NCBI RefSeq assembly: GCF_024700885.2
Contig: NZ_CP117014.1
Length of the DNA stretch: 64,000 bases
DNA from: Escherichia coli
Lineage (GTDB): Bacteria; Pseudomonadota; Gammaproteobacteria; Enterobacterales; Enterobacteriaceae
Direction: 5' to 3' (one strand)
The number at the start of each line of letters is the position of its first letter. The first letter of the stretch is position 1. Shown in pieces: positions 4,341 through 21,257 of the stretch. The notes below the pieces were generated by a model. It was not told the DNA's origin. It was given only the letters and a program-made list of their open reading frames with translations, and did not search any database. Both the position numbers and the translations under genes were made by a program.

Positions 4341-5999
4341 TCAGCGCATCAGAATTGGCTTACCGACGATTCGGCGAGCTGTACCGGTCGGACAAACAGA
4401 CCAGGACACTTCCCACAGATCGATGTCCTTTTGGACAACCTGAACAACGTATGGATCTTCACCCTGGGACTTGTCACGTGGAGTAACCAGCGCACCGGCT
4501 GCAACGTAACGGTCAAGCAATTCAGTCATTGCTTTCATTAGCGTTTCTTTGGTAATGCCATCCGGTTCGTGCTTAATCGCCTGAGCTACTTCATAGAAAT
4601 CTCTGGCGATGGCGTTCATCAAGGAAGACACATGCTGGAATCGCAGATAGTTGTTTTTGCTGTAAGTTGTTAAAGAGTCGTCAATGTAAACGGACCCGTC
4701 AGCAGCAACTGAAACTGGATTAATGCGCGCAAGAACGAACGCTTCACGATCAACTGCACCGATATTTGGAATTCGGGCAATGTTCTGTCGATCAATAATC
4801 GCGCGTGATATACCTGCCGGTGCGTAATGCCAACCACCAACATCCGGTACCAGCGCCACTCCTTTTGCCTTCGCTACGAATGCGTCGCAGCTAATGCCAT
4901 AGACGACATTCATTCCAGTGAAAGTATCTCGGCAGGAGAGTGGGAAGTAGTAACGGCTTGGTTGATGTGAGCCGCCAAAACTATGGCTTTTCGCTTCTGA
5001 AATAGCGTTTTCAGGTGTCTGGTTGCCCTTCAGGTCATAGAACATGTCTACGCGAACATCTTCAGCCAGCTTTTTGATTGCGGCTAAGGCGGATGCGTCA
5101 TAACAACCCAATGACAGCAATGCGGTGTAATTAACCTCTGAAGCTTCGAGAACCTTTAATGCTTCCAGATAGTCTGCAGCGTTAATTTCGGACAGATTTC
5201 CATCAGTACCACCTTCAAAAGCTACATCCTCAAAAATGAGTTGAGCAGCGGATGCTTCTGCATTATCTGCCAGTACGGCACCAATGCGAGAGGACTGGCT
5301 TTCAAGCAGTGTCGGAATCCATGCTGGTTGGCCCATGTCGTTGGTGCCTTCTGGATTGAAAGACACTTGGTGGCTTTCCAGCACCTCAATGGACCCATCG
5401 GTTTGTTTTTCTTTCAGCGTCAGCGTAAAGAGTTCGCTTTCTTCATCATCGCGAGTTAGTGATAACGTACGATTTTGAGATGCATCACCATCTTTGATGA
5501 AGAATAATGCCTTCTCTCCACCTTTAATCTGGGGCGTCTCTTTGGGTGTGAAGGTCACTGATTGAGTCGTTGCAGTTGAAGCAACACCAACGCTTAATGT
5601 GTCACCTGGATTTACTGTGGTTTCAGTAGGTTCAACGGAAAGTTCTTTGCTCGCCTTTGCCGCTTTTGCTTTGCCCACAACGGAAACAGAAATACCCGGC
5701 ACCTTCATGTCTTTAGCGCAAACTCGAACGACATATCCAGAGCCGCCTTTTACTGCACGCTCCACGTGGCGATATGGTTCAAATGCCGCGCCCTGGCGAG
5801 GGTGAATCGGTGAACCTAATACGCTTTGATAAGTCGTATCGTCAACTTTCAGTACCTTACCCGGTGCGCCACGACGCGATATTACAAGCCCAGCAAAGAC
5901 GGATGCGCCACCGCTGGTATTGGTGAGGGTAGCGTCAGCATTTACTGACATTACAGCAACGCCAGCTGCCTGCCCTACCGAAAAACTAATCTTATTCAT
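4341..5999 (-). CDS. putative contractile tail sheath protein
   Basis: 552-aa ORF. Size, position upstream of the tube candidate, and the character of the C-terminal region (..INPVSV..DDSLTT..LRFQHVSSLMNAIARD..) fit the sheath family. Not verified by search. Confidence 0.55.
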   Translation of the reverse strand: MNKISFSVGQAAGVAVMSVNADATLTNTSGGASVFAGLVISRRGAPGKVLKVDDTTYQSVLGSPIHPRQGAAFEPYRHVERAVKGGSGYVVRVCAKDMKVPGISVSVVGKAKAAKASKELSVEPTETTVNPGDTLSVGVASTATTQSVTFTPKETPQIKGGEKALFFIKDGDASQNRTLSLTRDDEESELFTLTLKEKQTDGSIEVLESHQVSFNPEGTNDMGQPAWIPTLLESQSSRIGAVLADNAEASAAQLIFEDVAFEGGTDGNLSEINAADYLEALKVLEASEVNYTALLSLGCYDASALAAIKKLAEDVRVDMFYDLKGNQTPENAISEAKSHSFGGSHQPSRYYFPLSCRDTFTGMNVVYGISCDAFVAKAKGVALVPDVGGWHYAPAGISRAIIDRQNIARIPNIGAVDREAFVLARINPVSVAADGSVYIDDSLTTYSKNNYLRFQHVSSLMNAIARDFYEVAQAIKHEPDGITKETLMKAMTELLDRYVAAGALVTPRDKSQGEDPYVVQVVQKDIDLWEVSWSVCPTGTARRIVGKPILMR

Positions 6000-6066
6000 G
6001 CTGGTTCTTATCCTCTAAAGCGAGAGAACGAGGCAAGGCTACCCACGGTTAATGGGCAGCCTCTGA

Positions 6067-6345
6067 TCAGGATTGGCTTACCGTGAAGTTATCGCCTACG
6101 GTTACTTCTTTCGTAGTTGGTTCAACACTGACGGTGCTTACGCTTTTATGTGCCTCCCTAACAGTGACTGTGCACTGTGCGGTTTTATTGCCGTCATTTG
6201 TTTTGATTGTCAGCACTGCCTGCCCGACCTTAAGAGCGGTACATGTAGTGCCATCAACCCGGACAATATCAGGGTGATCTGACTCAACAGTGAAAGATTT
6301 GTCTGTTGCGTCAGATGGCGTGATAGTTACTTGAATGTTTGCCAT
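6067..6345 (-). CDS. Ig-like (Big_2-type) domain protein, possible head/tail decoration
   Basis: 92 aa. It shows a beta-rich Big_2-like pattern (VTITPSDATDKSFTVESDHPDIVRVDG..LTIKTNDGNKTAQCTVTV) plus the start of a second repeat (VSVEPTTKEVTVGDNFTV). RBS is caggag. Confidence 0.5.
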   Translation of the reverse strand: MANIQVTITPSDATDKSFTVESDHPDIVRVDGTTCTALKVGQAVLTIKTNDGNKTAQCTVTVREAHKSVSTVSVEPTTKEVTVGDNFTVSQS

Positions 6346-6492
6346 TTTTTTCTCCTGAACGCCCCTTAATCAGGGGCGTGTTTTTGCCTTACTTCTGCTT
6401 TGTTTTTTTCTGTGCCTTTGAAGTGTTCGCGGCGATAGTTTCACCTTCATCTACGTCAAGTGACGTTGGTGATACCGACACGTTCGCCACCA

Positions 6493-8190
6493 TCACTTTT
6501 TTTCGTTAACCTTGCCTGTCAGCATGTCGATAGCACCTTCTTTGGCGCGAGTCAGACGCAGGCGGGTGAAGTAGTTTTCACCGTTGCGAGGATGTACTTC
6601 GTTGATGGCACTGCCCCAGAGAGTGGTACGGTTAACGAGAGACGGATTGGTTTCGTGCACGTAAGGGATTGCTGGGACTGCATCACCAGCAATCAGACCG
6701 GCTTTACCGATGCCTTCGCCACGCCCATAGAAGAAGATGTCATCCAGCCCGAAGTCATATCCCTGTGCCTGGAATTGCTCACAGACAGGTTGCGGCACTT
6801 CGTAAATACGAATCGTGCCAAACAGGGTGCCGATGTACTGTACATACGGCGACTGAACGTAACCTGGTGCGATCTGGAAGTGCTGTGGAGGCAGAGAGCG
6901 CAGGAAGTTCGCGGCGTCACCACCAGCAAAGCCGCCACGAATACCCGTTGTCAGGGTACGATTTGCCATTTCTTGAGACAGAGCGTTTACTACGTGACGC
7001 AGGAGGCCGACCCAGGACTCATAGTTTTGAGCTTCCGGCAGAGCCACATCAAATTCACGACCATAAACGGTATGGAATACCAGGGTGCGCAGACGCATGA
7101 TGTCGGTTTCATGGGAGATCCAGTTACGCATCGCGGAGAACTGAAGTGCCGCTAATTCAAGGCCGTGCTCACGGCTTAAATCGGATGCGGACATTACCGT
7201 GTGTTCGGAAGCAATTACGTACTGGGATGGACGAACTTCGTACTTACGCATAGCCTGGTTGATCACAGGAATCAGGCTTGGATTGCGCTCGATGTTAATT
7301 TCGACCTGAACAGCAATTTCAGTACCTTCTGGCGGAGCCTGGGTAAATGTAATGTCAATGACACCAGTGTCATAGGCAACTTTGGCAGTCGCTGAGAAAG
7401 CTTTACCTTTGCTGTCTTTAGCATTGAAATAAAGGTTGCCATCGCCGTCGTCAACTTTGGACGGTTTGCGGTTGATCAGCAGTTTGTTATAACCAGCGCG
7501 AAGCGGGCAGGATTGTCCCTCAAAATTTTGGATGTCGAACTGGAAGGTTTTGGTGCTGCCATCCCCTTTAGTGGAAAGGGTATACAGGCGCTTCATTTGA
7601 GAATAAACACCAGCTGACTGCATATTCAGTTCGTCACCTTGTTTGAAGGTGCCGAATTTTGTGCCTGCTACGTTGACCAGTTCATAAATATTTGACTCGT
7701 CACGATCACAAGGAACAAAAGTACAGGCATCACTGGTAGCAGCGCCCAGAGAGGCAGGCAGAATTAGAGCAGCATATTGAGCAACTTTCATTACGCCGTC
7801 AGAGCTACGCATTGATTGCGCGACAGACTCAAACATTGCCTTACCCGTGCCTTCGTGGGTATCACTGGCACATTCAGTCATCAGGCGCTCAAGAGCCATG
7901 TGTGCGTTCGCCAGGATGTCACTTGCCGGGTAATGACCATGTTGACGTTTATACTCATGCAGAGACATAGCCCACCCACCAGTGATCTGACGAGCGACCT
8001 CTGGATTTACGCCTTCAAACATAGGCACTTTCTGGATTGCTTTATCCAGGTTTTCCATCATTACTGCCTGGTCAGCAATCATGTTGCCTGCTGCATCGGT
8101 GGTCGGATCGACGGTCATAGCCATGACGCTTGCCGCCCGATTCATAATCTCGCGCTCGCGATCACGAGCTGGCTGAATGTTTTTATTCAC
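6493..8190 (-). CDS. putative major capsid protein (P1 gp23 position)
   Basis: 565-aa ORF and first gene of the late operon. Size and synteny (capsid-sheath-tube next to rep) match P1 gene 23. Ends in a GAA AAA AAG TGA slippery run. Confidence 0.55.
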   Translation of the reverse strand: MNKNIQPARDREREIMNRAASVMAMTVDPTTDAAGNMIADQAVMMENLDKAIQKVPMFEGVNPEVARQITGGWAMSLHEYKRQHGHYPASDILANAHMALERLMTECASDTHEGTGKAMFESVAQSMRSSDGVMKVAQYAALILPASLGAATSDACTFVPCDRDESNIYELVNVAGTKFGTFKQGDELNMQSAGVYSQMKRLYTLSTKGDGSTKTFQFDIQNFEGQSCPLRAGYNKLLINRKPSKVDDGDGNLYFNAKDSKGKAFSATAKVAYDTGVIDITFTQAPPEGTEIAVQVEINIERNPSLIPVINQAMRKYEVRPSQYVIASEHTVMSASDLSREHGLELAALQFSAMRNWISHETDIMRLRTLVFHTVYGREFDVALPEAQNYESWVGLLRHVVNALSQEMANRTLTTGIRGGFAGGDAANFLRSLPPQHFQIAPGYVQSPYVQYIGTLFGTIRIYEVPQPVCEQFQAQGYDFGLDDIFFYGRGEGIGKAGLIAGDAVPAIPYVHETNPSLVNRTTLWGSAINEVHPRNGENYFTRLRLTRAKEGAIDMLTGKVNEKK

Positions 8191-8348
8191 GGTTAAGCCC
8201 TAAATTCGGGCGCGGCGTGAAGGTTCTTTTGACGGGATAACAATACCTACTTTGTGATTTAGTCAATAGGTTTAGTAAAATAAAATCTATTAACACTCAT
8301 GTTGTTATGTGATTTAATTTTAGTTTTCTAACACAAATCATTAGAGTT

Positions 8349-20489: not shown

Positions 20490-21257
20490 TCACCCCATAG
20501 ATATCGAGGTTTCGGTAATAATACGTTTTGCGTCCAACTCCCATGCTGTGATCACGTCTGTAATCACACTTATCGGCGCTTGTGTGGCATAAATACGCTC
20601 TTCTCCAATTGGTGCTGAAACATCCGTAAAGCCGACTTCTTTGGCATCCTGTATCGAGCAAATCAGCGGGACCGGGACACGAACAAGGTGAGTGGTTGCT
20701 TCAAATTGTGTACCTGTCATCAGGCGAAGCCGTGCGCCCAGCGAATTACACATCAGACTCATGGTCGCTTTATCAGTTGCCATTAACGTAACGTCATACG
20801 TCAGAATGGCCTGGGTGTATTCCAGTTCTGCTAAAGGCATTCCGGTATCCGGTTCGCAAAAACTGGCTACTTTTTTGCGGTCAATCTGCTGATCATCGTT
20901 GATATAATTGATATCCATAGTGCGTGAGATATTGACCAGGGGGAGAGCATCCCGGTTAATGTTCTGGTTTTCAGGTTTTCTCCCTTGCCCGGCATTTGCG
21001 CGACGAACTGCTTTAAGAAACTCGATCGCATTGTCGAAACGGGCCACATAGACACGCTCTGCTGGTGGACGATTCAGGAATGACGCAAAGCGTTTTTCTT
21101 CCGGCGCGGGGGCCACCAGTAAGATATCAGAAAAGATATTGCTGATTAGCGTAGCAAACGCGTTATCCACGTTTTCAAAGCCCGTGGTCTGGAATTTCCC
21201 TGTGCGTGAGGTTTGCCATTCACCTGTTCGCGCCAGGAGGGTTTTATTTGAAGTCAT
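20490..21257 (-). CDS. hypothetical baseplate/tail protein
   Basis: 255-aa ORF in the same operon. Confidence 0.35.
   Translation of the reverse strand: MTSNKTLLARTGEWQTSRTGKFQTTGFENVDNAFATLISNIFSDILLVAPAPEEKRFASFLNRPPAERVYVARFDNAIEFLKAVRRANAGQGRKPENQNINRDALPLVNISRTMDINYINDDQQIDRKKVASFCEPDTGMPLAELEYTQAILTYDVTLMATDKATMSLMCNSLGARLRLMTGTQFEATTHLVRVPVPLICSIQDAKEVGFTDVSAPIGEERIYATQAPISVITDVITAWELDAKRIITETSISMG

Follow-up and report, generated by a model that had tools for sequence, protein, structure and literature searches.

Evidence for a programmed -1 frameshift and a predicted split Ig-like domain at the 3' end of the major capsid gene of D6-like phage-plasmids

Immunoglobulin (Ig)-like extensions of coat proteins that arise by frameshifting are established for gene 10 of phage T3, gp5A/5B of Lactobacillus phage A2, and the Listeria phages A118 and A500 (PMC5009743; Fraser et al. 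2006 on Ig-like extensions, as cited there). In these phages, -1 slippage at the end of the major capsid gene provides a minority of the subunits with an Ig-related C-terminus, and the Ig element seems to be a mobile module that close relatives lack. The same appears to hold for the major capsid gene of a D6-like plasmid prophage located in a 64,000-nucleotide stretch of Escherichia coli DNA (contig NZ_CP117014.1; hereafter the window), whose close relatives without the element include P1, Leclercia, and others. A slip site at the capsid 3' end with an Ig-related addition is present here as in T3 and A2, whereas a complete domain in the extension is not: in the described phages the transframe extension is a whole Ig-like domain, but here it comprises only about 20 residues (Big_2 positions 2–21), and the remainder of the domain is made from a start of its own, as a protein in which the fragment occurs a second time.

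The slip site itself resembles those of dnaX and IS911 of E. coli, with which it shares the identical heptamer, the host group, a predicted stem-loop 5 nucleotides (nt) downstream, and, in several lineages, purine-rich Shine-Dalgarno-like stretches upstream. In dnaX, the shift leads to early termination (the gamma subunit), whereas here it would bypass a stop codon that follows directly or two codons later and thus lengthen the protein; the stimulators at this locus are candidates, known from sequence.

Big_2 or other Ig-like folds are displayed on virion proteins also in T4 (Hoc), lambda (the C-terminal Big_2 domain of gpV), and T5 (pb10), but these domains are complete in one chain and are attached by covalent fusion or by a dedicated capsid-binding domain. 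In chaperone-usher and type V pili, an Ig-like fold without an edge strand is completed by a segment of another polypeptide, and pilus subunits equipped with a donor segment as well as an acceptor groove are able to assemble into chains. Both an acceptor that lacks particular strands and a matching donor on another polypeptide are recognizable in the locus described here, although the missing part is N-terminal (strand A to mid-strand B), the donor is C-terminal, and neither a chaperone nor a protease is evident; the likeness to donor-strand complementation in pili is drawn from sequence only. Literature searches for a donor-strand or split Ig domain on a phage capsid found none.

The slip site and its conservation

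All features of the capsid locus lie on the minus strand. The major capsid protein gene (6493–8190, including the TGA at 6495–6493) encodes a 565-amino-acid (aa) homologue of P1 gp23, with which it shares 44% aa identity; the protein matches the solved P1 Gp23 structure 9ukm (E 2e-164), and its counterpart in phage D6, to which the gene is 99.3% identical, carries the annotation major capsid protein. The open reading frame (ORF) ends in GTT AAC GAA AAA AAG TGA, with GAA at 6504–6502, AAA at 6501–6499, AAG at 6498–6496, and TGA at 6495–6493, which places the heptamer A_AAA_AAG (6502–6496) in X_XXY_YYZ phase relative to the capsid ORF. The -1 frame (6496–6389) remains open for 35 codons up to a TAA (6391–6389) and translates as VMVANVSVSPTSLDVDEGETIAANTSKAQKKTKQK. 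An earlier note on this DNA, made from the letters alone, had pointed out the heptamer, its phase, the adjoining capsid stop, and the 35 open codons; when read directly from the minus strand, all of its coordinates and translations proved correct.

The window contains 27 copies of AAAAAAG (19.5 ± 4.4 expected), and 32% of arbitrary window positions are followed by at least 35 open codons. Because both are common by chance, the heptamer and the open frame are not significant by themselves; the significance of the site derives from its conservation among relatives. Of these copies, that at 6502–6496 alone is in phase where a long real gene ends. Another candidate slip site (20876–20870, minus strand), where an apparently in-phase ORF stops directly after the heptamer and 126 codons are open in the -1 frame, was rejected as an artefact: the "zero frame" is a spurious ORF of 62 aa, and the "-1 frame" is the real gene, which encodes 255 aa (20490–21257).

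Related loci, numbered here with the prefix L, were gathered from PLSDB, IMG/VR, JGI metagenomes, and Logan assemblies. The conservation of the heptamer in relatives, on which the earlier note had made its suggestion depend, is complete: the in-phase heptamer is kept in all 73 related loci that possess the downstream Ig-like ORF and lack an in-frame fusion (72 loci scored automatically, representing 38 distinct haplotypes, plus L122, which carries both elements but was missed by the search pattern). By contrast, it is found in none of the 84 related capsid genes (42 haplotypes) without an Ig ORF, so that the co-occurrence of heptamer and Ig ORF is perfect among the scored loci. The carriers belong to at least six lineages, with capsid identities of 62–88% and Ig identities of 41–82%; between the D6 clades, the synonymous divergence (dS) of the capsid gene amounts to 0.8–1.5. 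The codon before the heptamer varies (GAA, GGA, GCA) but always ends in A, so that all lineages have N-N-A AAA AAG, followed by the stop either directly or two codons later. The zero-frame C-termini of the capsid proteins are otherwise unalignable (VNEKK, TTDEEEKKSE, NNGGDTGKKSE, GDEGEAKKSE, SDSDGDEKK, and QEDDGKKSE, each followed by the stop). A scan of genome contigs yielded only three P1-type loci.

Several observations concern the surroundings of the slip site in individual lineages. In the lineages outside D6 (L010, L121, L122, L123, and L125), 9–15 acidic or Gly/Ser-rich residues are inserted between the capsid core and the slip site (e.g., SSASNPGETTDEEE and SESKGDSSDSDGDE); these stretches resemble flexible tethers and at the same time give a purine-rich Shine-Dalgarno-like sequence 3–14 nt upstream of the heptamer. 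Two loci deviate from the common arrangement. L009 (Salmonella plasmid pSa1423-160k) has many indels, including the loss of 3 nt in the heptamer, and a broken capsid ORF; in L025 (IMG/VR), a run of seven As inside the extension is one A shorter, which results in a variant tail of 41 aa. Each of these may be either a sequencing error or a decaying copy.

The peptide encoded in the -1 frame is conserved as well. Homologous peptides occur in six further lineages, in one of them in frame with the capsid. The -1 ORFs are 24–45 codons long and all stop at TAA, but only about 20 aa are Ig-related; the pattern common to all peptides is V-x-V-T/A-G/N-V-S-V-...-G-D/E-x-[IFVL]. The peptide begins with VMVANVSVSPTSLDVDEGETIAAN in the window and reads VGVTGVSVSSDGQELSEGDSFAIE up to the stop in L010, begins with VRVTGLSVLPTSLAVAVGDTIAF in L121 and with VRVTGVIAEPAENVEVSVGEKLAT in L122, and reads VSVTGISVSQATLECSPGDNVLFVD up to the stop in L123. 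In comparisons between clades, the ratio of non-synonymous to synonymous substitution rates (dN/dS) of the extension is 0.22–0.47 in the -1 frame, whereas those of the other two frames mostly exceed 1; its nucleotide divergence within the D6 clades is 13–20%, compared with proportions of synonymous differences (pS) of 0.5–0.69 in the neighbouring genes. In L146 (Ga0207713_1000182, about 2190–2346), the capsid ORF itself runs on in frame into the homologous peptide, and the protein ends in GTVVEGVTLSPASITVSAGDEITAGNTKKDS (longer C-terminal stretch, LTGQVNGTSGTVVEGVTLSPASITVSAGDEITAGNTKKDS). This locus has no slip site, but its stop codon is followed by a hairpin and, after 42 nt, by a separate tailed Ig ORF of 96 aa. 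An in-frame counterpart in a relative is what comparative work classically takes as the mark of a genuine transframe product.

A candidate stimulatory stem-loop (6429–6490) starts 5 nt 3' of the heptamer. Its outer helix pairs GUGGCGA (6490–6484) with UCGCCGC (6435–6429), and its inner helices comprise 6476–6474/6439–6437 and 6471–6468/6445–6442 (minimum free energy -25.2 kcal/mol, z-score -2.83). All 14 consensus pairs are kept in 10 sequences of the D6 clade, with three one-sided changes, whereas other lineages have different stems (z-scores of -0.3 to -3.55). The stem GUGAU/AUCAC, which the earlier note had proposed immediately after the slip site, is present in the window but is not kept in the relatives (GUAGC... 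there); the stem GUGGCGA/UCGCCGC is conserved within the D6 clade instead. The conserved pairing is suggestive of an RNA stem that may act as a stimulator. No family in Rfam matched.

A Big_2 domain apparently divided between two polypeptides

The gene downstream of the extension (6067–6345) encodes an Ig-like protein of 92 aa, which ends in VSVEPTTKEVTVGDNFTVSQS and has its own conserved ribosome-binding site, AGGAG (6352–6356). The protein matches the Pfam family Big_2 (PF02368) with 33.4 bits (gathering threshold 22.8 bits), but only at profile positions 22–79. Residues 4–60 (6336–6166) correspond to Big_2 from mid-strand B to strand G, residues 63–68 form a linker, and residues 69–92 (6141–6070; VSTVSVEPTTKEVTVGDNFTVSQS) represent a second copy of strand A to mid-strand B, which is found also in L010 (VEGVSVDSEKQDATVGDTFTVGE). 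The start of the match at profile position 22 or 23 is common to all lineages tested; coverage of the full profile is lacking in the window and likewise in five other lineages.

The part missing from the Ig ORF is found at the end of the extended capsid protein. Codons 1–24 of the extension (6496–6425; VMVANVSVSPTSLDVDEGETIAAN) correspond to Big_2 strand A to mid-strand B and align to profile positions 2–21, whereas codons 25–35 (6424–6392; TSKAQKKTKQK) form a basic tail. The extension alone gives no Big_2 hit, but when it is joined artificially to the Ig protein, the match covers positions 2–79 with 42.0 bits, a gain of 8.6 bits. In 6 of 7 such chimeras of cognate extension and Ig ORF, the match reaches Big_2 position 2 (position 12 in L122), with gains of 0.5–8.6 bits. 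Neither polypeptide alone is a complete Big_2 domain. These results bear out the notion of the earlier note that the peptide resembles the first strands of such a domain while being too short for a full one, with only about 20 aa that are Ig-related. The note had also likened the peptide to the end of the 92-aa protein, and the two are indeed homologous: a comparison of nine extensions with nine Ig tails gave an hhalign probability of 96.7% (E 3.5e-10, 24 columns), and in L010, L125, and L123 the extension and the Ig tails share their last profile position. What was not borne out is the proposal that a frameshift module has decayed or been rearranged. At least seven lineages, one with an in-frame fusion, share the short extension together with a separately initiated Ig ORF that is incomplete at its N-terminus, and the longer -1 ORF with an Ig domain that the note had suggested looking for is present in none of the relatives compared. 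The comparative pattern is that of a conserved split Ig domain, not of a decayed module.

In an exhaustive profile search, the 92-aa profile was collinear over positions of about 4–90 with single stretches of giant tandem-Big_2 proteins, which swamped the search to the extent that the size of the small-protein family is not readable from it. By this alignment, the 92-aa unit is a register-shifted window that extends from mid-strand B of one repeat to mid-strand B of the next, and the 6-residue linker therefore represents the inter-domain linker of a bead-on-string array. Because the N- and C-termini of the Ig fold lie at opposite poles, such a linker would be too short for folding back in cis. 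Two Big_2 homologues of 138 aa (P0018 and P0021) were rejected, as they occur in unrelated genomic contexts.

In L123 (2238–2444) and L124 (758–964), which stem from two independent sequencing runs, an additional Big_2 ORF of 68 aa matches profile positions 22–79 but has no C-terminal A–B tail. It is located 7 codons after the TAA of the extension, in the same frame, with its own AGGAG, and precedes a tailed Ig ORF of 91 aa. Since it has no tail, there is no source of strands A and B in cis, and they would have to come from another chain; the 68-aa protein could be a chain cap or the original partner of the capsid tail.

The gap between the stop codon of the extension and the ATG of the Ig ORF is 40, 41, 42, or 46 nt, and the frame relation between them differs among the relatives, which indicates that the Ig ORF is initiated independently. 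Bypassing, hopping, or a +1 shift as a second recoding event that would link the extension with the Ig ORF was rejected, because the gap lengths change the frame relation, the run of seven As inside the extension of the window is not conserved, and the zero frame has a TGA in the intervening hairpin.

Predicted mechanism and alternative explanations

During late expression, most ribosomes would terminate capsid synthesis at the TGA and release the 565-aa protein, whereas a fraction would slip by -1 on A_AAA_AAG, with tRNA-Lys re-pairing from AAA-AAG to AAA-AAA, probably stimulated by the adjoining stop codon and the stem-loop 5 nt downstream. The slipped ribosomes would yield a capsid protein of 600 aa that ends in NEKK-VMVANVSVSPTSLDVDEGETIAANTSKAQKKTKQK, with NE/KKVMVANVSVSPTSLD as the predicted junction in a Glu-C/Asp-N fragment. 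The first 24 or so of the added residues would supply strands A, A', and the first half of B of a Big_2 domain, and the rest (mid-B to G) would be made separately as the 92-aa protein from its own ribosome-binding site. By inserting into the incomplete Ig fold in a donor-strand-like complementation, the capsid tail would fasten the 92-aa protein to the frameshifted subset of the capsid subunits.

The frameshift is the best-supported part of this mechanism, and its product is very probably real and under selection; the efficiency of the shift and the role of the stem are what we infer. That the product acts by complementing the Ig protein in trans is a tentative proposal, to which we give slightly less than an even chance. 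As a whole, frameshifting combined with complementation is the best explanation of the locus, and we hold it with somewhat more confidence than doubt. Completion in trans is suggested by the exact complementarity of the two pieces with respect to a single Big_2 profile, by the equivalence of the donor segments of the capsid and the Ig protein, by the tail-less acceptor in L123 and the persistence of the split in L146 despite its in-frame donor, and by the G-to-A linker of 6 residues, too short for a fold-back in cis.

Several points weigh against this explanation. AlphaFold2 gave no support for complementation, in models of a confidence too low to tell completion in cis from completion in trans: the mean predicted local distance difference test (pLDDT) score was 67.7 for the Ig protein alone, with a low-confidence tail, and 51 for a cis chimera of extension and Ig protein, in which both the extension and the tail scored below 45. 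The core of the Ig protein alone reached 75–87, and its best structural matches were Big_2 domains and the C-terminal domain of lambda gpV (2L04). The gains in Pfam score are small in three of the chimeras (+0.5, +1.0, and +3.3 bits). The stem contains no double compensatory change, and its arms encode conserved residues (VAN and IAA), so that the conservation of the stem is inseparable from that of the peptide; moreover, the downstream structure is weak in L122 (z-score -0.30) and L004 (z-score -0.69). The loci L146, L121, L122, and L125 are each represented by one metagenomic contig, and the site was probably inherited from a single ancestor, in which case the counts are not independent events.

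The alternative that survives best is that the tail is real and selected but contacts neighbouring capsid subunits or some other partner instead of completing an Ig fold, while the 92-aa protein makes up for its missing strands with the tail that it carries, either in cis or by domain swapping in a dimer, and binds the capsid in another manner or not at all. It would be consistent with the two C-terminal strands (78–82 and 86–91) that AlphaFold2 builds in the Ig protein alone, possibly packed on its own core, with the failure of the chimera to place the extension confidently, and with the basic tails of several lineages (KAQKKTKQK, KPKKRKKNQPR, and KATRTKRKEPPQ), which have no role in the Ig fold. 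We nevertheless consider it unlikely, since it does not account for a tail-less Ig protein in L123 and L124 that needs strands A and B from another chain, for extensions that end precisely at the profile position of the Ig tails in L010, L125, and L123, for the perfect co-occurrence of heptamer or extension with the Ig ORF, or for a linker that equals that of tandem arrays.

Production of the extended capsid mainly by transcriptional slippage, which would add one extra A to the mRNA, is a considerably less probable route. The run in the window comprises seven consecutive As (GAAAAAAAG), and runs of A or T are known sites of slippage in both bacteria and phages (PMC5009743). In three lineages, by contrast, the run has only six As (GGAAAAAAG and GCAAAAAAG). 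Six As are short for efficient slippage of the polymerase in E. coli. The X_XXY_YYZ phase and the terminal G, which provides the AAG codon in the A-site, are kept in every lineage although the polymerase requires neither, and a stem-loop is located at the spacing typical of ribosomal stimulators. The conservation of phase and terminal G even where there are only six As thus argues for ribosomal over polymerase slippage.

It is quite improbable that translation of the -1 ORF is merely regulatory, opening the hairpin or allowing reinitiation and so coupling synthesis of the Ig protein to that of the capsid, with an unimportant peptide. The stop codon of the extension does lie 40–46 nt upstream of the Ig ATG (about 22 nt in L123), with a hairpin in between, but the peptide pattern of Big_2 strands A and B is kept across lineages whose DNA is unalignable and with dN/dS below 1, the peptide is in frame in L146, and the Ig ORF has its own strong AGGAG.

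An even smaller probability falls to the possibility that the extension is a separate small gene, translated by termination-reinitiation at the ATG that overlaps the capsid stop (UGAUG). The window has this TGATG, and the RefSeq record of D6 (NC_050154, 52273–52377, corresponding to 6391–6493 of the window) lists the -1 ORF as a separate hypothetical protein of 34 aa ("orf50") from the same ATG. However, the ATG occurs only in the D6 type and is not preceded by a Shine-Dalgarno sequence; ATG, GTG, and TTG are all missing from the -1 ORFs of L010 and L125, that of L122 has its first potential start at codon 16, and in L146 the peptide is in frame with the capsid. The lack of suitable start codons in L010, L125, and L122 indicates that the -1 ORF is not an independently initiated gene and leaves frameshifting as the only route. 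Equally remote is a chance heptamer next to the decaying remnant of a former capsid–Ig fusion without present function, because, although the extension is too short for a domain and both the heptamer and an open frame of 35 codons are common by chance, the comparative data already contradict such decay: heptamer, phase, and peptide pattern are kept over a capsid dS of 0.8–1.5 and capsid identities down to 62%, no relative has a longer -1 Ig ORF, and the in-frame version in L146 keeps the split.

A further step beyond frameshifting and complementation, which we regard as rather unlikely but worth stating by analogy, is that the capsid tail primes a self-assembling, non-covalent chain of Ig proteins, in which the tail completes the fold of a first 92-aa subunit and the C-terminal A–B segment of each subunit that of the next, head to tail. 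Such a chain would be similar to donor-strand exchange in pili with reversed polarity, and the tail-less 68-aa paralogue would cap it in the lineage of L123.

Genomic context and biological implications

The window region 5900–8300 is 99.3% identical to Escherichia phage D6, which identifies the element as a D6-like plasmid prophage of the P1 family. A PLSDB plasmid of E. coli matches 5990–6560 at 100% identity, and in 118 plasmids of PLSDB, the match extends over 80% or more of the 571-bp segment that runs from the 3' end of the capsid gene up to the sheath start; D6-like phage-plasmids are widespread in E. coli, Salmonella, and Shigella. The record of D6 (NC_050154), in which the same DNA (99.3% identity) is present, annotates the Ig ORF (orf49) as "structural protein with Ig domain" next to orf50, but neither the frameshift nor the split domain; likewise, ribosomal slippage is absent from the capsid gene as annotated by PGAP in the plasmids.

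Between the extension and the Ig ORF lies the 8-bp GC-rich hairpin ACGCCCCU GAUUA AGGGGCGU (6359–6379), already noticed in the earlier reading of the letters and confirmed here. A hairpin is kept at this position in D6-like relatives and also after the capsid gene of P1-like phages. On the gene strand, it is followed only by UU; on the plus strand, it scores as terminator-like, with a T-run following that derives from a 6-nt insert, GCAAAA, present only in the D6-type clade. A second hairpin, AGGCUGCCCA / UGGGUAGCCU (6036–6062), separates the Ig ORF from the tail sheath gene (4341–5999; P1 gp22 homologue, identified by the D6 annotation), which is the downstream boundary of the module, and a hairpin at the corresponding position is seen also in relatives.

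P1 has neither heptamer nor Ig ORF; only a hairpin lies between its capsid and sheath genes. The same succession of hairpin and sheath gene was found in L015, L119, and L161, the loci whose downstream sequence was inspected. The capsid genes of Ig-less relatives (L015, 4160–4405; L119, 3150–3252; L161, around 2359; and L147–L162) encode low-complexity C-terminal tails, such as TAKATKPQK, QQTETPAK, ADTPKSAKK, and AAATGTGTGS, each followed by the stop. The lysine-rich ends of several of them (B14 and L161) are similar to the basic stretch with which the D6 extension closes (KAQKKTKQK before the stop), which hints that the basic tail of the D6 extension may be the ancestral C-terminus of the capsid protein.

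The heads of P1 have T=13 symmetry, with 775 copies of gp23 and no decoration protein (PDB 9ukm; PMC12810830). If those of D6 are alike, frameshifting at a few percent would provide tens of tails per head, and if the Ig proteins indeed form chains, short Ig "whiskers" would be carried by a frameshift-set number of the approximately 775 capsid subunits (the copy number of P1).

With this locus, the major capsid gene of D6-like phages gains a probable programmed frameshift that had not been annotated before and whose extension is listed as a separate hypothetical gene in current records. If the domain is indeed split, it would represent a new mode of attachment of a decoration protein, in which a fragment of about 20 residues on the capsid is dosed by frameshifting and the domain is rebuilt on the particle. 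Such a system would be a natural counterpart of engineered split-protein tags and might find use in phage display or as a means to set how many Ig domains the surface carries. Surface Ig domains have been implicated in binding to mucus and epithelium, and the existence of both an in-frame version (L146) and frameshifted versions of the capsid tail offers a natural experiment on why its stoichiometry is limited.

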